Origin: a virus
Lineage: Duplodnaviria; Caudoviricetes
Length of the DNA: 64,000 nucleotides
IMG/VR virus record: IMGVR_UViG_3300025723_000033
Span: 2,441 to 66,440 of that record
Reading direction: 5' to 3' (one strand)
This document shows, in pieces, positions 47,536 through 64,000 of the stretch. The notes beneath the pieces were generated by a model, which saw nothing but the letters and a program-made list of their open reading frames with translations, did no database searches and was not told the DNA's origin. The position numbers and the translations under genes are program-made. How positions within the stretch are numbered: the first letter of the stretch is position 1; each line of letters begins with the position of its first letter.

Positions 47536-48216
47536 ATGATACATTCTTGCTTGATTCCAGACGGCCAAGTCATTATTTTTAATTTTCCCGCTGGTGCCGG
47601 TGGCAAAATGCTGCAAAACTGTGTGGGCATGAGCCGCCATTGTGTGTTGCCTAATGCTGATCATATTAGCTGGCAAATAAACTTCCGGCAGGATATCAAT
47701 CAATTATTTTACCAACAAAAATTAAAATTTATACTTAGAACTATTCCAGATCCGGACAATGTTAAAAATTGGTTGGCCTTTGAAATGGACAAAGATGATC
47801 CCTGCGGTATTGGACTATTTGATTTTAGGAATTATATTCCGGTATCTAATCCAGATATCTATACACTAGCCAAACAAAACCTATGGATGACATTGACAGT
47901 GCACAATTTTGCTGCATCAGAATATTATAAATCTTACTGGCCCACTATAAAGCATGTATGTTTAGTCAACAATGAAAAGTTTGCAAAATCTGCATTACCC
48001 AAAAAAAATAACAAACTAAACTATGACAATGACTGGACATCACTGGGATACACACCAGCAGGATTAGGGTTTGATTTTGACATAGATAGTACTGTATTTG
48101 ATACAAACAAATTTCTGGATCAAGTTGAAATGCTGTATGAATATCTAGGATTTGACGATTTCAAAGCAGAGTACATCAAAGAATACCATACAAGATACAT
48201 TGAATTACATGTCTAA
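47536..48216 (+). CDS. Hypothetical protein (226 aa)
   Basis: FPAGAGGKML Gly loop near N-terminus. Confidence 0.7.
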   Translation: MIHSCLIPDGQVIIFNFPAGAGGKMLQNCVGMSRHCVLPNADHISWQINFRQDINQLFYQQKLKFILRTIPDPDNVKNWLAFEMDKDDPCGIGLFDFRNYIPVSNPDIYTLAKQNLWMTLTVHNFAASEYYKSYWPTIKHVCLVNNEKFAKSALPKKNNKLNYDNDWTSLGYTPAGLGFDFDIDSTVFDTNKFLDQVEMLYEYLGFDDFKAEYIKEYHTRYIELHV

Positions 48217-48991
48217 TCATTATGAAACACTAGGTGTCGACCGTCATGCCAGTGCCGACGAAATAAAACGAGCCTATCGCAAATTGGCCAGCCAATATCA
48301 TCCAGACAAAGGTGGTGACACTCAAAAATTTCAAGCCATACAAGCAGCCTATGCCGCACTGAGTGATCCTCAGAAACGTGCTGCCTATGACAATCCTCGC
48401 CAACAAATGCCTCCAGGATTTGAATTCCATAATAACGGGCCTTTTGACTTCAATACAATATTCAACATGTTTGGCACAAGATTCCAACATCCTGGTCAAC
48501 AAAGAACTCAACATGCTAGGATGGATCTTTGGATTACCCTTATGGATGTGGCACAAGGAGGACAAAGAACAGTCAGTGTGGGCACTAGTCAAGGTACCTT
48601 GGCAGTAGAAATTGAGATTCCGCCTGGCATTGAAGACGGCAATACAGTGCATTATGCAGGCATAGGCCCAGGCGGTATGGATCTTTTGATAACATATCGA
48701 ATACATCCGCACCCTCGTTGGCATCGACAAGGACTGACCTTGGTTACCACTCATAACTTGGTGATTTGGGATTTGATCTTGGGCTGTGACACTGTATTCA
48801 CCGACATGCTAGGCACAGAACTACTCTTAACAGTGCCTGCAGGCACACAACCTGGCACACAGATGCGCATCAAAGGAAGAGGGTTGAAATCAAAGTCTGG
48901 TGTGGCCGGAGATATTTTGGTCAGTATACAAGCACGTATTCCAGAAAATATACCAACTGAAATATTAGAAATAATCAAACAAAAAAGATAA
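48209..48991 (+). CDS. dnaJ: DnaJ/CbpA-type co-chaperone (J domain plus C-terminal domain, no Zn finger)
   Basis: HYETLGV...IKRAYRKLASQYHPDK; GTQPGTQMRIKGRG; start 48209. Confidence 0.9.
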   Translation: MSNHYETLGVDRHASADEIKRAYRKLASQYHPDKGGDTQKFQAIQAAYAALSDPQKRAAYDNPRQQMPPGFEFHNNGPFDFNTIFNMFGTRFQHPGQQRTQHARMDLWITLMDVAQGGQRTVSVGTSQGTLAVEIEIPPGIEDGNTVHYAGIGPGGMDLLITYRIHPHPRWHRQGLTLVTTHNLVIWDLILGCDTVFTDMLGTELLLTVPAGTQPGTQMRIKGRGLKSKSGVAGDILVSIQARIPENIPTEILEIIKQKR

Positions 48992-48992
48992 C

Positions 48993-49736
48993 ATGAAAAA
49001 GGCAGTTATAATTTATCCGCACGGAGGTGGAGGTAGCTGGCTACATAATCTTATCTATCATTTAGAAAGCAATGATTATACGTTGCCAACAGTTGATTTG
49101 GTATTTGACAAAGAAAAAAAATCCAACAGCATTGATTTTTTCCATGGACTTGAATGGTATGAACCCAATGTTCCTACCTTGCTTGATATGTCAAAATGGA
49201 AACGTAAAATACTATTTTCTTGCACGCATTCATTTAATCTGTATATCAACGATTCGCACAAGATAAGATACAATAAAAATATCTACGACTATCAATCACT
49301 GAGTATGATTGATCAGTTTCATAATCTAACAGACAATGCCAGACACTTTGTGAGCAACAACGATTTTAAAAAATTCTATTGCACAAATATCAATTTAGAC
49401 TACAGTTTAATTTTTCAACAACCAAAATTGTTTATACATAATTTATTTGATTTGTTGGACAACCTGCAGTTGGATTACAGTCACAATGTGGAATACTGTT
49501 TGTCCAGCATTGCAAATTATCGTAGCACATGCCTGCGTCCCAATGATCATTATGGCAACAGACAAAGTCTATTATGGTTGGCATGGTGCCATGCATTGTG
49601 CCTGATCGACAACATACACATAAGTGAATTGTTGGATCAATCCAAATCAATGAATGATCTTGCTGAAATTTTTTTGCCGTATCAAGATAGATTTTTATCA
49701 CTGTCGGAGCAGTGCATGTTTGATTGGCATGACTAA
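48993..49736 (+). CDS. Hypothetical protein (247 aa)
   Basis: IYPHGGGGSWL Gly loop similar to the 47536 protein. Confidence 0.7.
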   Translation: MKKAVIIYPHGGGGSWLHNLIYHLESNDYTLPTVDLVFDKEKKSNSIDFFHGLEWYEPNVPTLLDMSKWKRKILFSCTHSFNLYINDSHKIRYNKNIYDYQSLSMIDQFHNLTDNARHFVSNNDFKKFYCTNINLDYSLIFQQPKLFIHNLFDLLDNLQLDYSHNVEYCLSSIANYRSTCLRPNDHYGNRQSLLWLAWCHALCLIDNIHISELLDQSKSMNDLAEIFLPYQDRFLSLSEQCMFDWHD

Positions 49737-49825
49737 TCTTGGCACTATAAATACACCAAATAGGTTGCACTAGTTATGGGTATCAAAGTACAATACAAAT
49801 TGCAACAAATACAATCTACATACAC

Positions 49826-52099
49826 ATGCAAAACAATCCCGAAATTGAGCAAATACTTGAATCTGCAGTGACCATTGCCTACTCATGCAAACATGAATAC
49901 GTGCTCACTGAACATGTGTTGTTGGCCTTGATACGACACGACACTTTTCGATCAACACTAGACAAATATGGTGTCAATGTAAAATTATTTGATCAAGAAT
50001 TGAATGCATATATCAACAGTTTGACCAGTTTGATCAAAGACCCTGCACCTCAACCTAGAAAAACAAACTCACTGGAAAGAGTGTTTAATCGAGCTCTTAC
50101 TCAGGTATTATTCACTGGACGTCGACAGGTATCTGTGGTCGATTTGATGATTGCCATGCTGGCCGAAACCAATAGCCACGCACACTATTTCCTACTTAAA
50201 CATGGAATCAAAGGACAGGAGTTCATTGATTTTTGGCAAAGCACAAACAATACTGTCACTGCTGTCATGTCAGATAATCAGGCCACGCAGATACTTGAAG
50301 AATATTGTTCTAATCTTACTGCACTGGCCAAAGGTGATCAACTTGAACCAATGATTGGGCGCAGTGCAGAACTAGAAGAAATGATCACAGTACTGGCACG
50401 TAGATTCAAAGCCAATGTGCTCATGGTAGGCGATCCTGGTGTGGGCAAAACTGCAATCATTGACGGATTGGCGCAGGAAATTGTAAACAACAAAGTTCCA
50501 GAATTTTTAAAAGGCTACGAGGTATGGAGTTTGGAAATTGGCAGTTTATTGGCAGGTTCAAAATACCGCGGAGAATTTGAAGAAAAATTCAAACAGGTCA
50601 TTGCTGCTTTGGATGCCAAAAGAAACTGTATATTATTCATTGACGAAGCACACACCATGATGGGTGCAGGCAGCAGTGGACAAAGCAATTTAGATTTTGC
50701 CAACATGTTGAAGCCAGCAATTACCAAAGGAAATCTCAAAGTGGTGGCCAGTACTACCTGGGAAGAATACTACGAGTCATTTGAAAAAGATCGTGCTCTA
50801 ATGCGTCGTTTTCACAGAGTGGCCATTGATGAACCAAATTCAAGTACCACAGAACAGATTCTCATTGGACTGAGTCCAAGACTGGAAAAATTCCACAATG
50901 TGTTGATTGCTACAGAGGCTATCTCGGCTGCAGTTGAATTATCGGGTAGATACATACATGATCGAAAAAACCCTGACAAATCAATTGATCTCATTGACGG
51001 TGCATGTGCCAAAGAACGTGTCAAAGATCAAGGACAAGTCACAATTACCCGAGAGATGATCATGGCACAACTAGCCAACATCACTGATATTCCCATTGAC
51101 AGATTGCAAAACGAACGTAGCAACAAGATACTGGAACTAGAAAACAATATCAAACAAAAACTTTATGGTCAGGACCAAGCAGTGGATGCAGTGCTTGAAA
51201 GAGTGTATATTAATTTCTCAGGGATTGGTAATGCTGGACGTCCTATTGCTAGTTTTTTGTTCTTGGGCCCAACTGGCACAGGAAAAACAGAACTGGCCAA
51301 ATTGTTGGCGGAAAATCTCGATATGAAACTGCTCAAATATGACATGAGTGAGTACCAAGAAAAACACACTGTTTCAAGTTTAATTGGCGCTCCGCCAGGA
51401 TATGTGGGATTTGAAGACGGAAATGTAGGCGGCGGCAAACTGATCAGTGATATCAGCAAAAATCCATTCAGTATATTGCTGTTTGACGAAATTGAAAAAG
51501 CACATCCAGATGTGATCAACATCATGTTGCAGATGCTGGACGAAGCAAGAATCACTTCCAGCAATGGCAAAACAGTTGATCTTAAAAATGCCATCATTAT
51601 CATGACGTCTAATCTGGGTGCTCGCGACAATGAATCAAACAGTATTGGATTCAGCACTGCGCTGGAAAAGTCCGGCGAAGAAGATCGGGCCATGAAAGAC
51701 TTCTTCAAACCAGAATTGCGTAACAGGATTGATCGCGTGTGTAAGTTTGCCAAACTTGATACTTTAGCAGTGAAAAAAGTTGTGGTCAAGTTTGTGGAAG
51801 AACTACAAACAAGTTTGGCTGCCAAACAAATTCGATTAACACTAACAGAATCTGTAATTGACATGTTGGCCGAAAAAGGCTACGATAAAAAAATGGGCGC
51901 CAGACCACTGGGTAGGAAAATTGATGAACTTATTCGTGTGCCTTTAAGCAAACGTATACTATTTGATCGTCTTGAAAATTGTACGATTCATGCTGTCATG
52001 AAAGATGACAAAATTGATTTTATCACTGAAGAAACCGCCAAGCCTGTAGTAAACGAACAAGGATATATTGTACTTGATCACTTCAAACCTAAAATTTAA
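49826..52099 (+). CDS. clpA: ClpA-type AAA+ ATPase (two NBDs, no ClpB middle coil)
   Basis: GDPGVGKT, LFIDEAH, RKNPDKSIDLIDG, GPTGTGKT, LFDEIEKAHP, GARPL; TATAAATA at 49746. Confidence 0.9.
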   Translation: MQNNPEIEQILESAVTIAYSCKHEYVLTEHVLLALIRHDTFRSTLDKYGVNVKLFDQELNAYINSLTSLIKDPAPQPRKTNSLERVFNRALTQVLFTGRRQVSVVDLMIAMLAETNSHAHYFLLKHGIKGQEFIDFWQSTNNTVTAVMSDNQATQILEEYCSNLTALAKGDQLEPMIGRSAELEEMITVLARRFKANVLMVGDPGVGKTAIIDGLAQEIVNNKVPEFLKGYEVWSLEIGSLLAGSKYRGEFEEKFKQVIAALDAKRNCILFIDEAHTMMGAGSSGQSNLDFANMLKPAITKGNLKVVASTTWEEYYESFEKDRALMRRFHRVAIDEPNSSTTEQILIGLSPRLEKFHNVLIATEAISAAVELSGRYIHDRKNPDKSIDLIDGACAKERVKDQGQVTITREMIMAQLANITDIPIDRLQNERSNKILELENNIKQKLYGQDQAVDAVLERVYINFSGIGNAGRPIASFLFLGPTGTGKTELAKLLAENLDMKLLKYDMSEYQEKHTVSSLIGAPPGYVGFEDGNVGGGKLISDISKNPFSILLFDEIEKAHPDVINIMLQMLDEARITSSNGKTVDLKNAIIIMTSNLGARDNESNSIGFSTALEKSGEEDRAMKDFFKPELRNRIDRVCKFAKLDTLAVKKVVVKFVEELQTSLAAKQIRLTLTESVIDMLAEKGYDKKMGARPLGRKIDELIRVPLSKRILFDRLENCTIHAVMKDDKIDFITEETAKPVVNEQGYIVLDHFKPKI

Positions 52100-52736
52100 A
52101 ACTGTTGACAAAGATCGATTATTTTACGATCGGTATCAGTACTCAATGAGCATTCCGTTAAAGGAAGCAAATGCACTGAGAAAAGAACTGTCGCATGATT
52201 CCATTGATCGTATCTTACAACGTAGGCAAGCCTACTGGTCAACTATGCCTAATCATAGATCAAGAACAATTGCTCAATTGCATCGAGTTTGTGATTTTTT
52301 ATTGACCATCACTGATGAATATAAACTGGTGTTCTATTATAATCATTGGTTGACAATATATACAAATAGTTTGGCACTGTTTGACCAAGTTGATGCACTT
52401 GATTTTATTGCAAGCAAAACTTACAGTCAAGTAAATGTTAATCGGCCCAGAGACACAATACTATTAAAAAATTCTAAACATACAAAACGCAGTTATTTTC
52501 GAGAGTTTGCTATAACCTCTCATGAAAAAGACATGCTTGCTAATTTTTTTGCCAATCAACAAGATCATGTAAAACTAAGTCCAGGCTTACAAAATTGGTT
52601 GAAAAGGGCACCGTTACATAATTATGTTTTTGATTATTTTTTCATTGATTATTCTGATGATCAATGGATGACTATGTTGAATTTGGTTCGTCCGGGACTG
52701 ATAAGAAAAACAGTTAAAATAATACAAGATAAATAA
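52068..52736 (+). CDS. Hypothetical protein (start uncertain)
   Basis: Long ORF following clpA. Confidence 0.65.
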   Translation: MYLITSNLKFKTVDKDRLFYDRYQYSMSIPLKEANALRKELSHDSIDRILQRRQAYWSTMPNHRSRTIAQLHRVCDFLLTITDEYKLVFYYNHWLTIYTNSLALFDQVDALDFIASKTYSQVNVNRPRDTILLKNSKHTKRSYFREFAITSHEKDMLANFFANQQDHVKLSPGLQNWLKRAPLHNYVFDYFFIDYSDDQWMTMLNLVRPGLIRKTVKIIQDK

Positions 52737-52742
52737 TTGACT

Positions 52743-52910
52743 ATGGCAAAAATACACGAAGAAGTTATTGTTATCAAACTTTCCAAATTGTTAAAATCCA
52801 ACACTGAAGATATTGCAGTGATTGTTACCAAAGACTTGGAAGATGCGCTCACTGCAGTGGCACAAGAGCTGGCTGGCACAGATATCATTGTAGAAGTAGA
52901 ACAGGCATAA
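52743..52910 (+). CDS. Small hypothetical protein (55 aa, missed by ORF track)
   Basis: MAKIHEEVIVIKLSKLLK...DIIVEVEQA; TAAATA 52730; TAATG coupling to next gene. Confidence 0.7.
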   Translation: MAKIHEEVIVIKLSKLLKSNTEDIAVIVTKDLEDALTAVAQELAGTDIIVEVEQA

Positions 52911-53242
52911 TGTCCATTTATACCACGGTCGTTCTCATACCCACTACATCGTCTGGAACAGATATCGTAGGGTATGCAGTACCTGCGGCAAACTATTATG
53001 GCGGTCAAGGTTATATACAGACTTTGACCTATACTCAGGATGGATTTCAAGGCAACATCACTGTGCAAGCCACGCTGAACAATACCATAGATTCGGCTCC
53101 TTGGTTTGACATTGACCATGCCAATGCTGCTACACCCACATCGGCCACTGTGTCAAATTCTGTGATAGGCAACTTCAGTTGGTTACGAGCAGTGGTAACT
53201 AATTTTTCAGCTGGTAATATCACAGTCACTGCCTCTTACTAG
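52910..53242 (+). CDS. Hypothetical beta-rich protein (110 aa)
   Basis: FQGNITVQATL...WFDI...GNFSWLRA. Confidence 0.7.
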   Translation: MSIYTTVVLIPTTSSGTDIVGYAVPAANYYGGQGYIQTLTYTQDGFQGNITVQATLNNTIDSAPWFDIDHANAATPTSATVSNSVIGNFSWLRAVVTNFSAGNITVTASY

Positions 53243-53265
53243 ATTTTTTATATAAATATATTACA

Positions 53266-54594
53266 ATGAATTATCTTGTAATATATCCCGGACGCTTTCA
53301 TCCTTTTCACCGCGGGCATCGTGCCAGCTACGAATATCTTGCTAAAAAATATGGTGAGGATCATGTGTACATTGCCACAACTGGTGTGCAAGCACCGGTG
53401 ACCAGCCCATTCTCTTTTAGCGACAAGGTCCGAATGATCACCACCCTGGGTATACCCTCTGGGCATGTGGTCAAGGTCACTAATCCCTATCAAAGTCGAG
53501 AAATCACTGACAAAATTCCTGAAGAAGAAAAAGCCAACACTGTGTTGATATTTGCGCTGAGTGCCAAAGATGCAGAACGTTTTAATTTTGCCCCCAAAAG
53601 AGATGGCTCGCCCAGTTATCTGCAACCCATGCCCAAGAATCTCAAAAAGCTAAAACCCATGACTGACCATGCTTACGTAGAGATAACTCCCACAGTAAAC
53701 TTCAAAGTGCGTGGTCGAGATGCTAACTCGGCCAGCCAGATACGTGAGTTTTATATCAAAGGCAACAACAATGATCGCGATCAGATCATTGCAGACCTGT
53801 ATGGCGAAGCCTACCCAGAGCTGCGTGACATATTTGATGACCGACTGGGTGTGACAGAACAGGTGCAGAAGATTGTGCGTGAAGCACAGTCAATCAAAAC
53901 TGAGAGAAGCATAGCATTGCTAGAAAGCATATTGATCAAAGAGCGTGGTGCATTAAATGAATTTGCACAAGGTGTGGCGGAAGCAACAGGTGACAAAAAA
54001 TTTGACAAGATGCTTAAAGGTATCACCAGTAAACGAGCAGTAGTTAAACGACAAAAAGCAGATACCAAACAACAAGCCCGTGATGCTTTTGGCGGTATGT
54101 TTGGTGGAGGTAATCCTGCTGATCAACTCAGCATCAAAAAGAAAGGTCTAGCGGAAAGCGGACGTCCAGCCAATACCTTGTATTTCTTTGATGTTGGTCG
54201 TGGCGGACGCAGTTTTACCAACAGTGACCTATTGGCACTGGGACTCCGTCAGTCCAAAGGCGGACGTTGGTACTACAAGCCTGGTACAAATACCAGTGCT
54301 GAAGTGTTGAAATCCACACTGGCACAACTGACCAACAGATTAAATATTGCTCCAAAAGCCTGGCAACCACCCGCCACGGAAAGCATACGTGATGTGTTTG
54401 GGTTTGACGTCAAAAAACCACCAGCAAAAAAACCTGCGGCTCCCATAGATGATTTTACAGCTAAAATGATAGCCAACAAACAAAAAAATCTAAAAATAGT
54501 GCAACCCAAAGACGTCTATCATTCTCCTGAAGAATACACCCAGGCCACTGGAAATAAAATAAAAGAATCCGCCGATTACCTTGAAGAAAAATAG
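53266..54594 (+). CDS. HIGH-motif cytidylyltransferase-like protein with modular C-terminal extension
   Basis: YPGRFHPFHRGH, SPFSFSDK, DANSASQIR; C-terminal modules separated by LNE, GVAE, GLAE; TATAAATA at 53251. Confidence 0.8.
   Translation: MNYLVIYPGRFHPFHRGHRASYEYLAKKYGEDHVYIATTGVQAPVTSPFSFSDKVRMITTLGIPSGHVVKVTNPYQSREITDKIPEEEKANTVLIFALSAKDAERFNFAPKRDGSPSYLQPMPKNLKKLKPMTDHAYVEITPTVNFKVRGRDANSASQIREFYIKGNNNDRDQIIADLYGEAYPELRDIFDDRLGVTEQVQKIVREAQSIKTERSIALLESILIKERGALNEFAQGVAEATGDKKFDKMLKGITSKRAVVKRQKADTKQQARDAFGGMFGGGNPADQLSIKKKGLAESGRPANTLYFFDVGRGGRSFTNSDLLALGLRQSKGGRWYYKPGTNTSAEVLKSTLAQLTNRLNIAPKAWQPPATESIRDVFGFDVKKPPAKKPAAPIDDFTAKMIANKQKNLKIVQPKDVYHSPEEYTQATGNKIKESADYLEEK
53969..53983 (+). 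repeat. 15-bp dispersed repeat AAGGTGTGGCGGAAG (GVAE motif), copy 1
   Basis: Exact copies at 62703-62717 and 63921-63935; one-mismatch core GGTGTGGCAGAAG at 62435-62447. Confidence 0.9.
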
Positions 54595-54645
54595 TCACCG
54601 TGTTATACTAGAGTAAATATTTGACATTTTTTATAAAGGAAATCC

Positions 54646-55560
54646 ATGGCAGACGCTCAACCCACAACCGAAACACCATCAGCTCCCGCTGGTCAACAAC
54701 AGATACAGGTCAATATTGACTATTTAAAAACTACCAGAGTGCATATCTGTATGCCTTGTTACGGTGGCATGCTCACAGAATCAACTTTTATGAGCTATAT
54801 CAAATGGTCAAATGCCGCTCGTCAGCTAGGCATCGACTGGACTATGGAAACTATGACCAATGAAAGTCTAATCAGTAGAGCCAGAAACACGCTCACTGCC
54901 AAATTCTTGCACAACAAAGATTCTACCCATTTGATGTTCATTGACGCAGACATTGGTTGGGAACCATGGCACTTGTTGGTGATGTTGAATCGAGATGTAG
55001 ACGTGATTGGTGGGTTATACCCAATGAAAAGCCTACCAGTAAAATGGTGTGTGAATGGGTTTGAAGGTGCCGAAGAAGGACCCGACGGGTTACAAGAAGT
55101 TACCAAAACAGGCACAGGATTCTTGTTGATAAAGCGCAGTGTGTTTGAAAAATTAGATGCACATCCTGCAGTGAAACCTTTTATCAACGATATTGGTCTG
55201 CCAACAGAACTAAATCCTTACATGAAAACTTATTTTGATACTGCTGTACGTGAAAATCGTTATTACTCAGAAGACTGGACATTCTGCGAAAATTGGCGTG
55301 ATCTTGGAGGCAAAGTATGGGTTGACAAACGTGTATTGCTAAAGCACACAGGAACCTATGTGTTTGATTTTGCTGCACAAGATCAATTGTACAGAGATCT
55401 ACACAGTCTTGCGTTGCAAAATGGAGCAGCTTTGGGTGTAGCTGGCACTGCGGCTCCTGTGGACTCAGTACCTACTAGTCCAGTGGAGGTTCCTCCGCCT
55501 GCACCTGCCAAAGTATTGGCCAGCAGTGCACCCAAAAAGAACAAAACCAAAGCCAAGTAA
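54646..55560 (+). CDS. GT-A fold glycosyltransferase-like protein
   Basis: ICMPCYGG, ESLISRARN, LMFIDADIGW (DxD), GTGFLLIKR, YYSEDWTFC. Confidence 0.8.
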   Translation: MADAQPTTETPSAPAGQQQIQVNIDYLKTTRVHICMPCYGGMLTESTFMSYIKWSNAARQLGIDWTMETMTNESLISRARNTLTAKFLHNKDSTHLMFIDADIGWEPWHLLVMLNRDVDVIGGLYPMKSLPVKWCVNGFEGAEEGPDGLQEVTKTGTGFLLIKRSVFEKLDAHPAVKPFINDIGLPTELNPYMKTYFDTAVRENRYYSEDWTFCENWRDLGGKVWVDKRVLLKHTGTYVFDFAAQDQLYRDLHSLALQNGAALGVAGTAAPVDSVPTSPVEVPPPAPAKVLASSAPKKNKTKAK

Positions 55561-55567
55561 ACGCCGG

Positions 55568-55573
55568 TAAATA
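55568..55573 (+). promoter_or_regulatory. T4-type late promoter, leaderless spacing
   Basis: TAAATA-N5-ATG 55579. Confidence 0.7.
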
Positions 55574-55578
55574 CACTC

Positions 55579-58500
55579 ATGAACATACATGAGTTAGACA
55601 GCTATAACCTTGCCGACGCAGTAAAGTTTAACGACAAACTAAATCCTGCGCTCTGGCAAGGTCAGCACATGCGCCCTGAAGTTCGTGATCAACTGCTGAC
55701 TATTGCAGAAGACTTTCGCGAACATCTTGGGCTTTCCAACCTAGATGTCAAAGACATCACAGTGTCAGGCAGCAATGCCGGCTATACATACACTCCCACA
55801 TCAGACATTGATCTGCATCTAGTGGTCCAAATGCCACATACTGATAATGAAGTGTATCGTGAATTGTTTGATGCCAAAAAGTACCAATATAATGACACAC
55901 ACAACATCACCATTGGTGGATATGATGTTGAACTGTACGTAGAAGACGCAGATAAACCCCCAGTTAGTCAAGGTGTGTTCAGTGTGCTTGGTAACGACTG
56001 GATACACATACCACGTCAGCGTGCCGCTACTGTTGATGACGATGCAGTTCGCAGCAAGTATGATGACCTAAAACACCGAATTGATTCAGCAGTTGACAGT
56101 GGGAGTCTGTCTAAATTAGAGAATCTGGTAGACAAGATCAAGCGTATGAGAATGGCAGGATTGGCTGAACATGGCGAACTGGGTCCAGAAAATCTCGCCT
56201 ACAAAATGCTACGCACACAAGGTGACATAGCCAGATTGCATGACGCACGTAATGCAGCACATGATCAGGAATTGAGCTTGGCAGAATCCAACATCATGCC
56301 CAAGCCCAGAATGACCTACGGGTTCAAAAGTACAAAGAAGTTAGACGAAGTAGGAATAACTCCCGACGGAGTTAGCCCTAGCACCAAAATGTTCTTGAGT
56401 GAAACCGACGATGAAAGTATCCTGCGAGACTTTGTGGCATTTTGTGCTCGAGAACTTGAGCTAGCGACTGAACCACAGATACGATTGCGCAGAGATCCTG
56501 CTTGGTCGGCCCGAAACCGAACATTTGGTCGCTATGATCATGACAATAATCAACTGGAAATCAGCATAGGCAATCGACACATCATGGATGTGTTGCGTAC
56601 TTGTGCACACGAACTCACACATCAACGCCAGGGCGAAACTCAGCAGATAGATCCAGACTCTGGGCAAACTGGATCACCAGAAGAAAATCAAGCCAATGCC
56701 ATGGCTGGTATTATCATGCGCCGGTACGGTGCCTTGCATCCTGAACTGTTTGAAAAGTCCCCTGTAGCAGAAAGTCTTACAGAATTTGCACCACCTGACG
56801 GTGAAGGCAATCATAATGATCCAGCACACAAGGCCTATCATGAAGGCAGTATAGACGGATTTTATAGACCCCCATCTGCCACAGTAGAGCAGTATACACG
56901 CATGCGTGAATGGGACAAACTGATAGATGGTACCTACAAAAAATACTATGTATTAGGCTGGCACAAAGGGCGTGAACGTCGTGCAGAATACGATAGCAAT
57001 CGACGATCAGTCTCAGAAGCCACTGGATATATTCCCACTGCGGCCGAAATGCATGATCCCAGATATGAAATGGCTATCACACAGGATGTGCGCCCAGGTG
57101 CCATTGGTCGTGCTGCCAATGCGTTTATGTTGAATACAGACTCACAAGGTCATCCACAAGAACTACGCCCAGATGGCTTGGTCAAAAGATTGGCCGAACA
57201 GTTAGCAGCATTCAAACAACCACTCAGTGAGTCCGAACAACTAGACGAAATCAACATGGGTGGCAAAAGTCTACGAAAGTTGTCCAAGAGCATTGGCGCC
57301 CTGGCCGGTATAGAATTTGAAATGATTGTGCCCAATGTAGAAGGCGGTAACAACGATGGCGACGAAGAACCTGACTACGACTATGATGAAGCTGCCTACA
57401 GCGTTGATCAGATCTGTGATTTTTTTGATGATGGAGACTACAACAGTCGTGGTGATATTCGACGCCTGCGTGAAGCCTTGATTGAAGACTATTTGGAGTG
57501 GCGTGATGAAAAAATAAACACAGTCTGGGACGAAGATGGGTTCAGTGACTTCTTTGTGGACTGGGTAGCCAACAACATTGATACAGATGACATCAATGAT
57601 TTTTTCAAACGACCTGCAGATCATGACATCAGCAAGTCAGACGTCATGGATTACGCCAACTATCTCTGGGGCCAAGATAGTTCGGCCAAAACGGACGCAT
57701 ATGATGAATTTCGCGATGACATGGTAGAAGATTCCGAATACAATCAAGAACACTGGCTGGATGATGAGGGTCTGAGTCTCATGAGTGACATTGAAAACAG
57801 ATACAGTTTATCCTGGCCCCACTGGCAGTATTCCAGCAATGGCGGTGTCTACAGTATAGGGTCTGTGGCTGACAGTTTTGAACGAGCCATTGGTCGTCCT
57901 GTGATGTGGGGCGACGATTATCACGACATAGATCGCGATAGTGCATATCAACAGGGTGCTTATATTGTAGAACCTGACGGCAGTTTAGAACCTGATTCCA
58001 ACAACGACCGCGGATTGGAATTTGTGAGCCCGCCTTTGCCACTGGACGAACTGGCCAAAGACATGCAAAAGGTCCGAGCCTGGGCCAAGGACAACAACTG
58101 CTATACTGGCAAGCGAAACAAAACTGGCTTACACATCAATGTGAGTGTGCCAGGCCTAGATGAAGAAATGAAAAATCTAGACCTTGTGAAACTGGCCTTG
58201 ATGTTGGGTGACAACTATGTGGCCAATGAATTTGGCAGACTGGGCAACAACTATGCCAGGTCAGTGTATAACATTGTGATGAACAATATCCGTGATCGTC
58301 CCGAAACTGCTGAAGTGTTGTTGGATAAAATGCGTGAGAATCTCAGCCGAGCTGCAACTCGTGTCATACACAATGTCAAAACAGAAAAATATAGCAGTAT
58401 CAATGTCAAGGATGGTTATATTGAATTCAGATCACCTGGTGGCGACTGGCTGGATGCCAACTTTGACAAGATTCAAAAGACCCTGGAACGTTTTGTTGTG

Positions 58501-59898
58501 GCCACGGATGCTGCAGTGGACCCTGACAAGTATCGCAAAGAGTATTTGAAAAAACTGTATCGTGCGCTTAGTGGCACAGAGATTGAACATGCCACAGATC
58601 CCACCACAGGCAAGAAAACTTTTAAGATCAATACTGAAGCAGACTTTGCCAAGTTGTTGAGTGAATACATGGCTGGTAAGTTTGATCGAGACGAGCTCAA
58701 AAGAATTGCTACCTATCAACGACAACTGGGTCAAGATCAGCCTGGTACCAAACAAGTGTATCGCATGGTCAACCCGGATACTGATCAAGAATATGCCAGG
58801 TTTACCACTACCAGTGCAGAAAAAGCTGATGCACAGGCCAAACTTTATGGTGTGGAACATGACATTCCGTGGTACCAGTATATTTTACTTGATCCCAACA
58901 TGCAGGTTGTGGGTGGAGATCTGCGTCACACTGCAAAACCTGGACGGCACAGTGATCCCAACGGTCGTTATGAAATTGTGAGTCGTACTACAGGTGATGG
59001 AGCACAACCAAGATTTATGTTCAGCGTAGCACCACAACAGATACCCTATGTGTTACAGGCCTGGGCTGACAGAAATGGCACTAGCCCTGCAGACTGGAAA
59101 GTGATTGAAATAGACAGTGGCAATGAAATGCCATCTAACAGACCCAGTTACGCCAGTGCATCAGGCGAAGATCCGTTATGGTCGGTATATTTGCGAACCA
59201 ACATGGCACGCAGTGTGGAAGTTCGTGCACCAGACCAGCAGGCTGCATTGACCGCAGCTCACGAAGCTGATCCTGACAGTTTTCCTGACTCAGTGACCAT
59301 GAATGATGTTGTGATATCCAATCTAAATCCAACTGGATCAGAAAATTTTAATCAATATCAAATTGTCAATCAAAACAATCAAGAAGTAGCAGTGGGGTTC
59401 GCAGCTGCAAATGACGAAGCGGCACTGGCCAGACTTGATCAATATCAGCGTAGTCATCCTGATGAGTCGTATGTTGTGCAAACTGCTGATGGAATTCAAA
59501 TTGTTGGATTAGACATCGAACAGAATTTTCCTGACAGAATCTGGGAAATTTACAGGCTCTCCAATCCCAGTGAGGTTTATCACACAATCACTGCACCAAA
59601 TCAAGTGGCTGCAGTGTATCAGGCCAGCACCTTATTGAACAGAAATGGGTTGAATTCCGACGAGTTTGATCTTCGACCAGCCGCAGTCTCAGGATCAACC
59701 CAAGATCTACAACAACAACGTGCCACACCAGGCTCATTCACTGGCGCATGGCGAGTGTTAGATACACAGGGTCGTGAAGTTTATCGTTTCAGCGGCATAG
59801 GCAATATGCAAGCAGATGCCAATCGTGCGGCCATTGATTGGTTGCAAAACAACGGCTATGATCCTGCAGAATACAGTGTTCTTCCCATAGTGAGTTAA
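55579..59898 (+). CDS. 1439-aa multidomain protein: Pol-beta-type nucleotidyltransferase + HExxH metallopeptidase + amidoligase (COOH-NH2 ligase) + C-terminal repeats
   Basis: GSNAG...SDIDLH; AHELTH; GIEFEM...EPDGSL...GLEFVSPP...TGLHINV...EFRSPGG; domains separated by L/V-x-E motifs. Confidence 0.75.
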   Translation: MNIHELDSYNLADAVKFNDKLNPALWQGQHMRPEVRDQLLTIAEDFREHLGLSNLDVKDITVSGSNAGYTYTPTSDIDLHLVVQMPHTDNEVYRELFDAKKYQYNDTHNITIGGYDVELYVEDADKPPVSQGVFSVLGNDWIHIPRQRAATVDDDAVRSKYDDLKHRIDSAVDSGSLSKLENLVDKIKRMRMAGLAEHGELGPENLAYKMLRTQGDIARLHDARNAAHDQELSLAESNIMPKPRMTYGFKSTKKLDEVGITPDGVSPSTKMFLSETDDESILRDFVAFCARELELATEPQIRLRRDPAWSARNRTFGRYDHDNNQLEISIGNRHIMDVLRTCAHELTHQRQGETQQIDPDSGQTGSPEENQANAMAGIIMRRYGALHPELFEKSPVAESLTEFAPPDGEGNHNDPAHKAYHEGSIDGFYRPPSATVEQYTRMREWDKLIDGTYKKYYVLGWHKGRERRAEYDSNRRSVSEATGYIPTAAEMHDPRYEMAITQDVRPGAIGRAANAFMLNTDSQGHPQELRPDGLVKRLAEQLAAFKQPLSESEQLDEINMGGKSLRKLSKSIGALAGIEFEMIVPNVEGGNNDGDEEPDYDYDEAAYSVDQICDFFDDGDYNSRGDIRRLREALIEDYLEWRDEKINTVWDEDGFSDFFVDWVANNIDTDDINDFFKRPADHDISKSDVMDYANYLWGQDSSAKTDAYDEFRDDMVEDSEYNQEHWLDDEGLSLMSDIENRYSLSWPHWQYSSNGGVYSIGSVADSFERAIGRPVMWGDDYHDIDRDSAYQQGAYIVEPDGSLEPDSNNDRGLEFVSPPLPLDELAKDMQKVRAWAKDNNCYTGKRNKTGLHINVSVPGLDEEMKNLDLVKLALMLGDNYVANEFGRLGNNYARSVYNIVMNNIRDRPETAEVLLDKMRENLSRAATRVIHNVKTEKYSSINVKDGYIEFRSPGGDWLDANFDKIQKTLERFVVATDAAVDPDKYRKEYLKKLYRALSGTEIEHATDPTTGKKTFKINTEADFAKLLSEYMAGKFDRDELKRIATYQRQLGQDQPGTKQVYRMVNPDTDQEYARFTTTSAEKADAQAKLYGVEHDIPWYQYILLDPNMQVVGGDLRHTAKPGRHSDPNGRYEIVSRTTGDGAQPRFMFSVAPQQIPYVLQAWADRNGTSPADWKVIEIDSGNEMPSNRPSYASASGEDPLWSVYLRTNMARSVEVRAPDQQAALTAAHEADPDSFPDSVTMNDVVISNLNPTGSENFNQYQIVNQNNQEVAVGFAAANDEAALARLDQYQRSHPDESYVVQTADGIQIVGLDIEQNFPDRIWEIYRLSNPSEVYHTITAPNQVAAVYQASTLLNRNGLNSDEFDLRPAAVSGSTQDLQQQRATPGSFTGAWRVLDTQGREVYRFSGIGNMQADANRAAIDWLQNNGYDPAEYSVLPIVS

Positions 59899-59901
59899 AA
59901 A

Positions 59902-60570
59902 TTGAATGACCTTAGCGTTGTTATTGTAACTTACCGCCGAGATCTCTCTTTGTTTGAAAGATGTATACAATCTATTGCCAAATACGGCATTGTTGCACAT
60001 GACATAAACATTGTCGTGGTAGTCAATGATGATTTTGCATTATTAAATGACATTGTTGCATTGACTGCTCCATTGAGCATAAACATTAATGTTTTACATT
60101 ACAGCGAGTTGACAGATTGGACTGGCCATATTGGATGGGATAGTCAACAATATTTCAAGTTAGCCATAGCCAACTTTGTCAAAACTACATGGTATTTGGT
60201 GCTGGACAGTGACAACTGTCTTTGGGATCATGTGCCAGCCAGTGCAATCTTTGTTGATAATCGTGCTAGCTATCTTTGGACCCAGACCACTGACCATCAC
60301 AAAAATTATTTGCACAATGCTTTGTTATTTTGGAACAGTGAGCCGTTGGATTATTCCATGGGAGATAGCACCCCGTTTGTGCTGCACACTGCCACTGTTA
60401 GAAAACTACTTCAGCATACTGACCCACAATGGTTTAATTTTGACAACCAAGGTGCATTGTATACCTTTGAATTTTTTTTATATTATGCATATTTAAAATA
60501 CACAAATACATTGGATATTCTGTACTTCAAAAAAACCACCGGACCATTAATTCGGGGCATACAGAGATAA
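59902..60570 (+). CDS. Glycosyltransferase-like protein (DUF6492-like)
   Basis: VVIVTYRRDL, GWDSQQYFKL, YLVLDSDN. Confidence 0.65.
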   Translation: MNDLSVVIVTYRRDLSLFERCIQSIAKYGIVAHDINIVVVVNDDFALLNDIVALTAPLSININVLHYSELTDWTGHIGWDSQQYFKLAIANFVKTTWYLVLDSDNCLWDHVPASAIFVDNRASYLWTQTTDHHKNYLHNALLFWNSEPLDYSMGDSTPFVLHTATVRKLLQHTDPQWFNFDNQGALYTFEFFLYYAYLKYTNTLDILYFKKTTGPLIRGIQR

Positions 60571-60588
60571 TAACCCACTAAATAATAG

Positions 60589-60873
60589 ATGAGTCAAAAT
60601 TTTGTTAAAATAATAGCCGATGTGCACTGCGATTGTGCTCTTGATCAACGACCTATTTACAGACTGTATGTGAACGATGAACTGTTTACAGAACGCACCT
60701 GGATTTGGGACAATGTGTATTTAGAAGAAACCATACCTATATCAGCAGAACCTGGCGATTATGTCATACGCTACGAGCTGGTACCGGGCACCTCAGCAGG
60801 ATTAAATATACAAAACTTGCGAGTGGCGGAAGGCTCTGCTACCATCCAAGATTCCATACTAAGGATACGATAA
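60589..60873 (+). CDS. Hypothetical protein (94 aa)
   Basis: TAAATA(60579-60584)-N4-ATG; YRLYVNDELFTERTWIW. Confidence 0.75.
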   Translation: MSQNFVKIIADVHCDCALDQRPIYRLYVNDELFTERTWIWDNVYLEETIPISAEPGDYVIRYELVPGTSAGLNIQNLRVAEGSATIQDSILRIR

Positions 60874-61061
60874 TGCGAGCTCGTGAATTTATACGTGAAA
60901 ATGCATCAACAGTTTCTGGCAGCATGGCCACTGTGGCCATGCCCTTGGGTGGCATGCTTAGTCGAAATGCCGGAAGTTTCTTTGCTGGGCATAAATACTC
61001 TAATGACGAGACTCCAAACACGCCTGCGGAGTACAAAACATACAAGAAACGGAAAAAGTGA
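60873..61061 (+). CDS. Small protein with internal-protein-like leader MRAREFIRE (62 aa)
   Basis: TAATG coupling; start reassigned to 60873. Confidence 0.65.
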   Translation: MRAREFIRENASTVSGSMATVAMPLGGMLSRNAGSFFAGHKYSNDETPNTPAEYKTYKKRKK

Positions 61062-61501
61062 TGTTAGCTGATTTGTTAAAAACATTGTTGGGAACGCAGT
61101 TTGCTCATTATATAAAGGCACATGCATTCCATTGGAATGTTGAAACTCCTGACTTTTATCAGTATCACAAGTTTTTCCAAAAAATCTATGAAGATGCTTA
61201 CGAAGCCATAGATCCCACAGCAGAATACATACGCAGTTTGGACGAATATGCTCCTGGCAGTATGGAGCGTTTTTTAGAACTCAGTGTAATACCCGGACAA
61301 ACCAAAATCCCACGTGCCCGACTCATGATTGAAGAATTGCTGGCCGACAGTGAAGTCATGGTTGATTTGCTCAACCAATGCTTTGCAGCCGCTACTCAAG
61401 AAAACAAACAAGACATTGCCAACTTTATTGCTGAAAGACTCAGCCAAACCAACAAGTTTGCCTGGCAATTGCGTAGTAGTTTAAAAGAGGCAAGGGCGTG
61501 A
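61058..61501 (+). CDS. dps: Dps / DNA-binding ferritin-like protein
   Basis: KAHAFHWNV...HKFFQKIYED...DPTAEYIRSL; KFAWQLRS. Confidence 0.88.
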   Translation: MMLADLLKTLLGTQFAHYIKAHAFHWNVETPDFYQYHKFFQKIYEDAYEAIDPTAEYIRSLDEYAPGSMERFLELSVIPGQTKIPRARLMIEELLADSEVMVDLLNQCFAAATQENKQDIANFIAERLSQTNKFAWQLRSSLKEARA

Positions 61502-61502
61502 T

Positions 61503-62132
61503 ATGGATTCTGAATTCCGCAGCATAGTTGAACGCTTGGCCGTTCTTGAAGGACGTATTACTCCTGTCACTGTAAAGCATGGACTCAACGCCCAGCAAAA
61601 GAGTGCACATCAGTTGCCTGCGCTGTTTAAACCACACACTGTATCTGTGCTAAATGCCAAGACTGATCCCAAAAATCCCATGGGCGGTTACATGGTGGGC
61701 GGTAGTGAAAGTGCTGAAGATGATCGTGATGTAGTGGAAGATGTCATAGGCAAGGTAAAAAAGAGCCTGACTGATTATTTGAAAAATCTTGAAGATCAAA
61801 TACACGTAGACGGTGATTTGAAAGACAAAAAGCCTGGAGATAGCGATCTCAAACAAAAGACCAAAGAAATTCGCGACTTATTGCCACGAGTTCAAGAGCA
61901 CGGCACCAACTTGCCCGAAGGCTATCCTGTGATGGCCATTGCCATGGAAGACGGTAGTCGTTGTGAAATACACGGTGACGATGATTCTGGTTATGAAATT
62001 CGTCGACTGGGTCGTGCGCTACCAACACGTTTTGAAAACCTAGACCATGCCATGATGGCCACACACATGTACAACTCACGCATGCGTCGACGTCACCCTG
62101 ATCAGCAACAAGATTATATTGAGGAAAAATAA
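61503..62132 (+). CDS. Hypothetical protein (209 aa), probable head protein
   Basis: Acidic/basic blocks; ends DYIEEK like the 53266 protein. Confidence 0.7.
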   Translation: MDSEFRSIVERLAVLEGRITPVTVKHGLNAQQKSAHQLPALFKPHTVSVLNAKTDPKNPMGGYMVGGSESAEDDRDVVEDVIGKVKKSLTDYLKNLEDQIHVDGDLKDKKPGDSDLKQKTKEIRDLLPRVQEHGTNLPEGYPVMAIAMEDGSRCEIHGDDDSGYEIRRLGRALPTRFENLDHAMMATHMYNSRMRRRHPDQQQDYIEEK

Positions 62133-64000
62133 TGTTAGTACAAGACCTATTTGAAAATCGCATGCATGATGCATACAGTGTGTTCCAGCAACTGGCCGGT
62201 GCAGTGCACAACAGTCAAGACGTTGATTTGAAAATAGGTCACGAAATGATGCCTATTCAGGCATGGCAAGCTCGTTTTTTACTGGGTCAGTACAAGAGCA
62301 TGGCCAAGCGTCAAGGTCCAGATGCAGCCATGAGATTTCTAGCTGACTACAATGCCATTACCGCTGCACTAGATGCCATGGATAGTCGTTTAGCACAGAT
62401 GAAACGCATGCCGGGCAGTTTGCCAGGTCAACGCGGTGTGGCAGAAGGTAACTTAAATGAGTTTGATCCCAGTGGATTCAACGGTGATGGCGAGAGTGAA
62501 AGAAGTCGTAGACTAAGAAAACTATTAAAAATTGCCATAGAAGCAGCAGAGAAGCATAAGGTTGGGTCAATGGACAAGATACTTGCTATGAACACAATAG
62601 CCGGAGATGACTTTTTCAGTATAGCAGTTGAAGGTATATTACCGGATATAACAGATAGAGAGTATATGTATGTGATAGAAAGTGCTTATAAAACAGTAAA
62701 GCAAGGTGTGGCGGAAGGCTACGATGAAGATGATGACAACGAATGTTATACATGTCGTGGCACTGGTGAAGGACAGCATGAAGGTGCTAGTTGTCCTTCA
62801 TGTGGTGGAAGTGGCATAGTGAGACCCACACGCGATGATGACAATTTTGATATTCCTGATGACATGGACGAAGGCGCTATAGAACCAAAAAATCTGCAAA
62901 GATATCATGCAGTAGACACCGGACGCTGGCCAGACGATTCAAATTCACTGGCTGACCGTACTATAGAAATACCAAATATTGCCGCAGTACGTGCAGGCAC
63001 CGCTGCACCAAACAAACACTTTCAGTCTACGCCTTTTCGTACCAATGGTGTAAAGATTGCTACCAAAGTAAAACCCACCATCACGCCTACCCATGTGCAC
63101 CGTCTAGATCGAGACACCACAGTGCCTGACTTTTTAAAGAAGAGCACAACCAAAGAAGATGCCAGACCGGGCCCTTTGGAACGCACGGCCCGCCACACTC
63201 AAAAAAAAACCGTTGACCAACTAACTCACTTGCAGGCCTTGAACGGTCTGGAGGAAACTGTGAGCTTGATGCGAGCCGCCAACCGCCGTATCACAGAAAA
63301 TCTATCTATAATGAGCGAAGCAGGATCACCTGCACAACAGGCCGCCATTGCTATTGCTATGAAAAAAGCTGGCAAGAAACCCAAACACATGAGTGAAGAA
63401 CCGTTGGATGAAAAGTGGAGTCAAAAATACAAAAGTTCAATCAATTGTAGTCACCCCAAAGGATTCTCACAACGAGCCCATTGCGCAGGCAAAAAGAAAC
63501 GCAATGAAAGTGTGGAGATGGAAATGACCTGTCCTGACTGCGGTATGTGCGAAACACATGGTGATCATTCAAGAAATACACTGGATGAAAACTGTTGGAA
63601 AGGTTATCACAAAGAGGGTAACAAAAAGATGTTTGGTAAAACTGTTCCTAACTGTGTGAAGAATGAAGATGCATTGAACGAATTTGCGCCCGGCAGTGGC
63701 GATGATCATGAACCCAATGAAGAAGAAATACTATTTAGGTTAGCCAAACAGTGGTGGTTAGGCACTGAAAAAGATATGATTCGTGTTGAGCGTACACTAG
63801 CAAGCATGGGTTGGGAAATTGGCGAAGATGAAGGATACGATGACGGTGGTGTGTTTGTGGTACGTGCAGGTGATGTCAATGGCAACAGTTATATCTCATG
63901 GCCACATGAAGATTTAACAGAAGGTGTGGCGGAAGAAAAATGTCCGCATTGTAGTGGTCCAATGTTCAGCGAACTAATGATGACAGAAAAGAAAGATGCT
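62132..64000 (+). CDS. Modular polyprotein, 623 codons, open to window end (missed by ORF track)
   Basis: My translation shows no stop from ATG 62132 to 64000; contains GVAE x3, LNEF x2, a CxxCxGxG zinc finger, KWSQKYK..C..PKGFSQRAHC and CWKGY...VPNCV modules. Confidence 0.88.
   Translation, partial: MLVQDLFENRMHDAYSVFQQLAGAVHNSQDVDLKIGHEMMPIQAWQARFLLGQYKSMAKRQGPDAAMRFLADYNAITAALDAMDSRLAQMKRMPGSLPGQRGVAEGNLNEFDPSGFNGDGESERSRRLRKLLKIAIEAAEKHKVGSMDKILAMNTIAGDDFFSIAVEGILPDITDREYMYVIESAYKTVKQGVAEGYDEDDDNECYTCRGTGEGQHEGASCPSCGGSGIVRPTRDDDNFDIPDDMDEGAIEPKNLQRYHAVDTGRWPDDSNSLADRTIEIPNIAAVRAGTAAPNKHFQSTPFRTNGVKIATKVKPTITPTHVHRLDRDTTVPDFLKKSTTKEDARPGPLERTARHTQKKTVDQLTHLQALNGLEETVSLMRAANRRITENLSIMSEAGSPAQQAAIAIAMKKAGKKPKHMSEEPLDEKWSQKYKSSINCSHPKGFSQRAHCAGKKKRNESVEMEMTCPDCGMCETHGDHSRNTLDENCWKGYHKEGNKKMFGKTVPNCVKNEDALNEFAPGSGDDHEPNEEEILFRLAKQWWLGTEKDMIRVERTLASMGWEIGEDEGYDDGGVFVVRAGDVNGNSYISWPHEDLTEGVAEEKCPHCSGPMFSELMMTEKKDA
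62703..62717 (+). repeat. AAGGTGTGGCGGAAG copy 2
   Basis: Exact match to 53969-53983. Confidence 0.9.
63921..63935 (+). repeat. AAGGTGTGGCGGAAG copy 3
   Basis: Exact match to 53969-53983. Confidence 0.9.

Follow-up and report, generated by a model that had tools for sequence, protein, structure and literature searches.

Several described phage systems come close to the one reported here. In bacteriophage T4, a 10-residue targeting sequence ending in I-A-E directs internal proteins into the head, Asp at P1 blocks processing by the gp21 protease, and a review suggests that this sequence allows varied proteins to be recruited into the heads of T4-like phages (PMC9026906). Polyvalent proteins carry several unrelated effector-type domains per polypeptide in highly variable architectures, frequently with a zincin-like peptidase as a partner, and their delivery with the DNA and proteolytic release have been proposed (Iyer et al. 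2017, PMC5512222). In the PeSL shuffling of T4-type phages, a conserved repeated DNA motif flanks variable units, and its authors propose general recombination on short homology and draw a comparison with integrons (PMC2839356, PMC4122927). The stretch analysed here (the window) comprises 64 kb of the 66.4-kb viral contig IMGVR_UViG_3300025723_000033. It contains three polyprotein genes on the + strand (gene 1, 53266-54594; gene 2, 55579-59898; gene 3, 62132-64000), whose modules meet, in frame, at short joints with a final Glu; the most frequent is Q-G-V-A-E-G, and its frozen DNA word is AAGGTGTGGCGGAAG. Related phages insert, delete and replace modules at this word, and the system combines features of T4 internal proteins, polyvalent proteins and PeSL shuffling.

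The resemblance to the T4 internal proteins IPI-III and Alt (PMC9026906) lies in a diverse, fast-changing putative cargo, short leaders, hydrophobic-x-Glu borders and a strict Glu at P1, and a gp21-family protease is encoded in genomes related to the window. In contrast to the T4 proteins, with one leader per gene, many modules share one reading frame here, their border is a frozen DNA word and the putative cargo would include large enzymes. With the polyvalent proteins, the locus shares the assortment of unrelated domains, the variability of architecture and, putatively, the zincin-like partner (here with weak fold matches), and delivery with the DNA followed by proteolytic release would be a further likeness; however, the description of these proteins gives no conserved DNA joint or common border motif, and neither 'linker' nor GVAE occurs in its text (PMC5512222). 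As in PeSL shuffling, close relatives differ by indels whose ends lie in the motif (at 62703 and 56773-57018 in the window). The PeSL unit is an intergenic promoter/stem-loop of ~100 bases that moves whole genes, whereas the conserved element described here covers 15-18 bases, lies within an open reading frame (ORF), keeps the frame and encodes peptide; the joint is not a PeSL because it is coding, in frame and only 15-17 bases long. The inner-body and ejection proteins of phiKZ, 201phi2-1 and SPN3US (PMC9026906, PMC7411985) also belong to giant phages, whose head proteins are in many cases cleaved after the Glu of short motifs, at redundant sites, but phiKZ requires a small residue at P3, the proteins are encoded by separate genes and no cassette exchange has been reported at the sites. 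We found no publication describing a joint with a frozen DNA word, and a literature search on the peptide string returned unrelated papers only. In polymorphic toxins, a peptide motif (VENN in CdiA, the core end in Rhs) marks the recombinational swap of variable C-terminal domains and in Rhs is also the place of cutting; these toxins are bacterial, each protein has one variable tip, and the motif is not a universal short DNA word across serial unrelated modules.

The word occurs exactly at 53969-53983 (copy 1), 62703-62717 (copy 2) and 63921-63935 (copy 3), always on the + strand, and the window holds no further copy at up to two mismatches; three copies of a 15-mer were reached in none of 100 shuffles. 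All copies lie in frame in genes 1 and 3, the latter being cut by the contig end, and read as GVAE. Two variant joints accompany them, GGTGTGGCAGAAGG at 62435-62448, with one silent change (GCA), and AAGGTCTAGCGGAA at 54143-54156, a decayed G-L-A-E joint (GGT CTA GCG GAA) that still keeps the rare GCG. GCG accounts for 6% of the Ala codons of the contig, and from its codon usage the probability of GGT GTG GCG GAA given GVAE was 0.0053 (~0.5% expected). A scan of viral contigs for the 15-mer returned at least 120 stretches, many with 2-5 copies inside 1-3 kb; among the matches listed, nearly all read Q-G-V-A-E-G within long ORFs and had unrelated flanks. Because this sample was biased, having been found through the word itself, 57 loci were fetched by gene-3 peptide words excluding the motif, which gave 47 non-redundant loci (the unbiased set). 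In their long ORFs, GVAE was found 84 times, and 55 of these (65%, versus 0.5% expected) carried the exact word, so that the codons of GVAE do not vary freely among homologues. The conserved core, [C/G]AA GGT GTG GCG GAA GG, spans 15-18 bases; conservation ends sharply on both sides and the flanks are free. As controls, invariant residues within conserved modules used their commonest codon at a frequency of only 0.4-0.75, and the adjoining LNEFAP was kept as a peptide with freely varying codons (within the window as well as in 13 further instances). The 12-mer has 57 copies in the unbiased set, every one of them in the GVAE frame of a long ORF and none on the other strand, in another frame or intergenic. 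The silent-site conservation together with the invariable frame therefore makes the word a DNA-level feature that exists only as translated sequence, and a role of the word outside the GVAE frame was rejected on the same counts. An RNA or translation signal (a Shine-Dalgarno-like AGGTG or a frameshift site) was judged by eye only: no slippery heptamer or downstream start codon was seen, and modules like the twin-arginine one lack a Met.

The frozen codons could in principle result from recent common descent of the joints, or mark a rare-codon translational pause at domain borders, with no role in exchange. Rare codons at domain borders are known in general, and both GCG and GTG are rare here. 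However, word-flanked modules are 50-85% identical in protein with free silent sites, and the common codons GGT and GAA are as fixed within the word as the rare ones. Recent descent alone was rejected, as silent sites are free both in the modules and in LNEFAP. With the crossover mapped inside the word and the clustering of breakpoints at joints (see below), this explanation is already largely refuted and can be regarded as highly improbable. Copies of the word do decay: one-step variants retain the rest of it including the rare GCG, and GG[C/T] ATG GCG GAA was found in 22 of 39 GMAE joints. Two relatives of the window illustrate this, a 75-kb contig (G007, 75-81% identical) and a 116-kb contig (L200/L202, 92-94% identical). 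The orthologous joint at 62435 has GCA in the window and GCC in G007, other G007 joints are GIAE and GMAE forms, and L202 has LNEFAP-DVAE-G where the window has the perfect word, the site being empty there too and the word decayed. In another viral contig (L054, IMGVR_UViG_3300042883_000164), a predicted protein ends in QGVAE followed directly by the stop codon, with the exact word, like a joint without anything attached.

The comparison with these relatives located the exchange of modules. Nucleotide homology to G007 covers 51320-53964, 54560-56772, 57008-59310, 60601-62383, 63155-63300, 63330-63678 and 63935-64000. It stops after LNEF (53964), at the third base of the Glu codon in P-V-A-E (56772) and at the start of LNEF (63678), and restarts at S-V-S-E (57008) and at the first base past GVAE (63935). 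Eight of the 11 breakpoints fell within 12 bases of a [VLIM]-x-E end, which was matched by none of 20,000 random draws, and five fell within 4 bases (p ~5e-4). At copy 2, the window could be compared with L200, in which window positions 62696-62718 align twice: in L200, two 17-base copies of CAAGGTGTGGCGGAAGG enclose 231 additional bases (77 codons). The single copy in the window is a hybrid, with the left flank of the first L200 copy and the right flank of the second. The crossover was therefore inside the 17-base word, and a cassette was recently gained or lost at 62703, which is a site of cassette presence/absence polymorphism. The exchange of cassettes at the joints is well supported by these data.

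A further cassette difference was found in gene 2. The P-V-A-E joint at 56761-56772 forms the left border of an inserted cassette of 82 codons (56773-57018), composed of a Ser, an LTEFAPP leader, a body and an S-V-S-E joint (57007-57018), and 56772 is the last base before it with homology to G007 and to L200. The cassette is absent from L200 (92% identical) and G007 (~80%), which have a single joint in its place (P-V-S-E in L200, T-V-A-E in G007) with the next module directly after it; a related insert is present in other homologues (P0031, P0032). The sequence-only reading of this DNA had inferred that the word serves as a recombination joint, to be refuted by module boundaries away from the motifs or by a fixed module content of orthologues. 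It was not refuted on these points: homology breaks at the motifs, a crossover maps within the word and the content differs in both G007 and L200.

In gene 1 (442 residues), a constant N-terminal domain, nucleotidyltransferase-like and weakly NMN-adenylyltransferase-like, is followed by a variable module region and a constant C-terminus of eight residues. The G007 orthologue is 84% identical over residues 1-236, up to LNEF, and then unrelated until the last residues. LNEF (53953-53964), with a cut-site-like L-N-E, is the left border of the variable region, where the nucleotide homology to G007 ends. In the window, LNEFA directly abuts the QGVAE of copy 1 (53953-53982), while G007 has a module of ~95 residues ending in GIAE after LNEF, and the modules downstream differ. 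The presence of this module at the same site supports the earlier view that the site in the window is empty. Homologues of the module ending at the decayed 54143 joint close with KKGVAE, encoded by the exact word, in other phages (L006, L036). The right border of the variable region is I-K-E (54559-54567; L-K-E in G007); the G007 homology resumes at 54560, and identity returns at this [I/L]-K-E before the common last eight residues. A T4 late-promoter-like octamer, TATAAATA, lies at 53251-53258 (+ strand), 15 bases before the ATG of gene 1, and has just two copies on the + strand of the 64 kb; it fits a predicted late expression.

The contig end cuts gene 3, of which the first 623 codons are present, encoding 100 constant N-terminal residues and, after them, a series of small modules that are in many cases basic and rich in Cys; the full-length protein of a near-identical variant (P0005) comprises 999 residues. 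The protein homology to G007 ends at the GVAE of the 62435 joint. Between this joint and copy 2, which form direct repeats (at 62435 and 62705, 13/14 identical and 270 bases apart), lies a cassette of foreign composition (62453-62702, + strand). Its GC content is 0.37 versus 0.46-0.48 in the flanks, and it uses ATA for seven of eight Ile and AGA for four of five Arg, versus 1/3 and 1/7 in the preceding segment. It consists of a disordered LNEFDP/Gly-Asp leader and a four-helix bundle, the latter modelled with confidence (predicted local distance difference test, pLDDT, 88). A full HMMER search returned 22 cluster representatives matching this module, 20 of them over the whole module or nearly so. 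The carriers are proteins of 207-1155 residues, several being nucleotidyltransferase proteins of the gene-1 type, in which the module takes varied positions and the neighbours on both sides differ. Its borders among the carriers read ...E(G)(N/S) followed by LNEF on the left, and ...K followed by QG[L/V/M/I][A/T]E on the right. A fold search with the four-helix module gave no meaningful match and no known structural relative, the ESM Atlas gave no usable match for two modules, and the related-locus search gave no match with gene 1 or with the 62453-62702 module, whose 24 relatives came from the full HMMER search. Directly after the 62703 joint lies a DnaJ-type CxxCxGxG zinc-finger-like module (62744-62816), with weak Anti-TRAP matches in Pfam and NCBIfam. 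A further cassette, with an LNEFAP leader (63674-63920, + strand), is kept in L200 and replaced by unrelated sequence in G007, where homology resumes at 63935 after copy 3; its module family is also placed after joints in other phages.

The distance from a GVAE-type joint to the LNEFAP after it is just 1-3 residues in most related proteins; LNEFAP acts as a leader and second cut-site-like element with which a module begins, and not as an independent left end. Most of what the sequence-only reading had recorded was reproduced: the three exact copies and the variants at 62435 and 54143, all in frame, the scarcity of GCG, the coordinates of the modules (62453-62717, 63674-63935 and 56776-57018), the abutting LNEFA-QGVAE, the 13/14 repeats, the alien codon use of the 62435-62718 module and the empty site, which ~95 residues fill in G007. 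It had also described the modules as having a DNA-conserved boundary; this is valid for the GVAE word, which keeps its codons, but not for LNEF(A/D)P, conserved as a peptide with free codons, and the role of LNEFAP as an independent left end had to be abandoned. Basic Cys-rich modules of the gene-3 type (Pfam DUF6321 and DUF5872 in relatives) are also present in cultured T4-like cyanophages. In Synechococcus phage SynMITS9220M01 (L178, MT408532, 84972-87587), such modules lie between the genes for the small and large terminase subunits and lack GVAE joints; one of them is a stand-alone ORF of 39 residues with a 9-residue leader ending in F-Q-E. With such modules in cultured cyanophages, and without GVAE joints in the one examined, the modules are old and widespread and the frozen joint appears particular to the uncultured group.

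An array of exchangeable units bounded by a repeated site, with empty and filled sites, resembles integron cassettes, and the word might be the recognition site of a dedicated enzyme (a site-specific recombinase, a nuclease or an annealing protein), in which case the system would be integron-like in the true sense. A conserved stretch of exactly 15-18 bases with sharp edges, the sharing of the word by phages with otherwise 50-80% identical modules and the shortness of 17 bases for homologous recombination are in line with this possibility. However, no match to a tyrosine or serine recombinase (PF00589, PF00239) was found in G000, G001, G002, G003 or G007, two of which are nearly complete, while control genomes were matched; a dedicated integrase was rejected on this result. 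In the unbiased set, every copy of the word was genic and in the GVAE frame, some breakpoints coincide with decayed joints or with other x-x-E borders, and T4-type recombination works on small patches of homology (PMC2839356). We therefore consider a dedicated enzyme very unlikely. Lacking an integrase match and an attC-like hairpin, the system is not an integron, and its units are protein modules in one frame, not genes. Read directly, AAGGTGTGGCGGAAG has no dyad symmetry, and all its copies are direct repeats on the coding strand. The earlier comparison with an integron is a loose analogy, applying to the empty and filled sites but not in the strict sense.

Apart from their role in exchange, the joints have the look of protease sites. 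In the unbiased set, the 84 occurrences of GVAE compare with 3 expected, GMAE was enriched 13-fold and SVAE ~5-fold, while GVAD, GVAK and GVAG remained at expectation though one base from GVAE. We also collected 88 distinct borders before a conserved '(S)ASGYIP' module, which lie between the zincin domain (or intervening modules) and this module and in which the word is absent. Glu occupied P1 in 88/88, V, L or I occupied P3 in 74/88, and P2 was free. The module borders follow [V/L/I]-x-Glu, the rule of T4 gp21. In the T4 sequences, L-T-E is followed by A in gp23 and I-A-E by A in gp22, and P-L-N-E-F is found inside gp68. The window belongs to an uncultured giant T4-related phage, because larger contigs (200-367 kb) that have its polyprotein modules in common carry the T4 head gene block, with a portal gene, two small genes placed like T4 genes 67 and 68, the gp21 protease, a scaffold gene and the gp23 capsid gene. 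Genes of the gp21 (Peptidase_S77) and gp23 families were present in four of five large related contigs with joints, and G001 encodes its gp21 homologue at L187 6184-6819. L-x-E stands in the capsid proteins of relatives at the place matching the T4 gp23 cut, and in G003 the small protein in the T4 gene 67 position, between the portal and protease genes, starts with M-I-L-N-E-F. In a few genes, the joint closes an N-terminal leader of 10-17 residues. Relatives also have M-K-x-x-E-F/I-x-T-E leaders, these stretches being too short for statistics. The start of gene 3 (62132-62160) encodes an 8-residue leader ending in L-F-E, like the T4 Alt N-terminus removed by gp21 and likewise too short for statistics.

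At three loci (L199, in G002 168000-186000, - strand; L175; L098), a twin-arginine (Tat) signal module directly follows a G[V/M]AE joint deep in a polyprotein. The upstream module differs in all three, and the Pfam TAT_signal match is just below its cut-off. As a Tat signal needs a free N-terminal position, this arrangement argues for cutting at the joint. On the basis of the fit to the gp21 rule and of the gp21 homologues in related contigs, the modules might be cleaved, packaged and injected. Cleavage of some kind at the joints is plausible and, in our judgement, just on the probable side, while cutting by the head protease followed by injection is a possibility that falls somewhat short of probable. 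In an alternative view, the joints stay uncut, GVAE being a flexible linker in a beads-on-a-string protein and the frozen word serving, or resulting from, recombination only. The evidence for recombination stands without cleavage, a word at the very C-terminus (QGVAE-stop) would be useless as a cut site, and Ala and Gly are fixed though the protease rule does not need them. Such a linker is nevertheless quite unlikely in view of the strict P1 Glu, hydrophobic P3 and free P2 of the word-less borders, the lack of enrichment of GVAD, the internal Tat signal after a joint and the short N-terminal leaders that end in one.

Another source of cleavage may be encoded in gene 2 itself. The 1439-residue product, with a nucleotidyltransferase, a zincin-like peptidase, the cassette described above, an amidoligase and further domains, is a polyvalent protein. 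Its zincin-like (HExxH) domain (56407-56760) ends just before the P-V-A-E joint, and an alignment of 29 homologues showed no variation in its His-Glu-x-x-His residues or in a Glu downstream of them. The domain model had a pLDDT of 80; its fold matches were weak throughout (best E 6e-3), with minimal zincin peptidases, IrrE, Wss1 and the ArdC peptidase domain at the top, the Pfam Peptidase_M78 match was below its cut-off and a PDB sequence search with the domain gave no match. More than 130 large proteins (the P0029-P0148 set) are built around the HExxH domain as an unchanging core, and its partners there include an amidoligase, sigma-70 region 4, a cytidine/dCMP deaminase, a GH19 chitinase, an acetyltransferase and an M48 peptidase.

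The joints might be cut in the cytoplasm of the infected cell by the zincin-like peptidase, or by another phage or host protease, and the modules would then act in the current infection without being packaged or injected. More than 100 homologues have a [V/L/I]-x-E border immediately after the domain, whose metal ligands are invariant; the domain stays constant beside very varied cargo and is similar in fold, though weakly, to minimal zincins and the ArdC peptidase domain, and autoproteolysis by such domains has been proposed by Iyer et al. (PMC5512222). A Tat signal after the joint fits cytoplasmic release and export, and the polyprotein genes lie among non-structural genes. Against this, genes 1 and 3 encode no peptidase domain, so the zincin would have to cut their products in trans; the border rule is identical to that of gp21 (PMC9026906), with no specificity known for the zincin; the fold matches are weak; and the leader peptides are like T4 targeting sequences. 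Cytoplasmic cutting appears unlikely on this evidence.

The explanation that we favour as a whole, and regard as probable, is that of cargo polyproteins whose modules are exchanged at the word and cut by the head protease. Under this explanation, each of the three genes would encode an N-terminal part that stays constant and, behind it, small modules that fold independently. The general phage recombination machinery would act on the short identity of the word, and only modules with intact flanking words would keep moving; as these alone would continue to spread, the word would stay frozen at silent sites across the phage population. Resident joints would slowly decay to GMAE, GLAE, GVSE and similar forms. 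Given borders that obey the gp21 rule, the polyproteins may enter the prohead, be cut into single modules during head maturation and be delivered with the DNA like the T4 internal proteins and Alt. A more far-reaching version would make the 17-base word a dual code under cassette-level selection, at once an in-frame adaptor through which any small module could join head-cargo polyproteins in a large group of giant phages, and a head-protease site that releases the module for injection, perhaps with a factor recognising the word; we put this forward tentatively and with considerable doubt. Such a dual code would be, just as tentatively, an 'integron' at the protein level that works without an integrase.

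Several observations weigh against the favoured explanation. The window's contig, estimated to represent ~19% of the genome, has no head genes, and the polyprotein genes sit among chaperone, ferritin and glycosyltransferase genes, outside any head module. The capsid proteins of relatives use L-x-E and not GVAE, the word has a fixed Ala at P2 and Gly at P4, neither of which the gp21 rule demands, and a twin-arginine export signal and metabolic enzymes are odd as capsid cargo. The zincin domain of the 55579-59898 protein, placed directly before a joint, is a rival protease candidate. Some breakpoints are off the motifs (59310, and 63154 at T-K-E), and the 56761/57007 joint pair has just 7/12 bases in common, so exchange does not always depend on a perfect word. 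Furthermore, in G002 (IMGVR_UViG_3300032268_000986, 343 kb), which has joints, no match to T4-type gp20 portal, gp21 or gp23 was found; this negative is weak because all three genes belong to one 10-kb block that the linear contig may lack. G002 is rated 99% complete and has four exact words, typical modules and a terminase like that of G001; its head block may be outside the linear contig and the contig is probably incomplete.

Nearly all genes of the window are on the + strand, and they include a T4-type clamp loader and a ClpB-like ATPase. Genes for DnaJ, a ClpB/ClpA-like two-ring AAA+ chaperone and a ferritin-like protein adjoin the polyprotein genes (48152-52099 and 61058-61501). A whole glycosyltransferase-like gene (DUF6492, 59902-60570) is absent from L200, and L202 has a radical-SAM gene, missing from the window, between the orthologues of genes 53266-54594 and 54646-55560; these two differences are gene-level indels beside the module-level ones. 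Among cultured phages, none with near-identical DNA was found, the gene-1 tail gave no tblastn match, and a 32-base query around the word gave chance-level matches only, with marginal sensitivity for a 17-mer.

If true, the favoured explanation would account for how large lytic phages try new small proteins fast and safely, with a universal in-frame adaptor that spares the newcomer its own promoter, start codon, targeting signal and processing site. One word of 15-17 bases provides a sequence handle by which hundreds of phage proteins could be picked out of metagenomes as candidates for injection or early action, and it opens the link between recombination and proteolytic processing to direct tests. 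Should cleavage and packaging be confirmed, the joint would offer a ready design rule, like the one that the T4 targeting sequence already provides, by which T4-type capsids could be loaded with foreign proteins.

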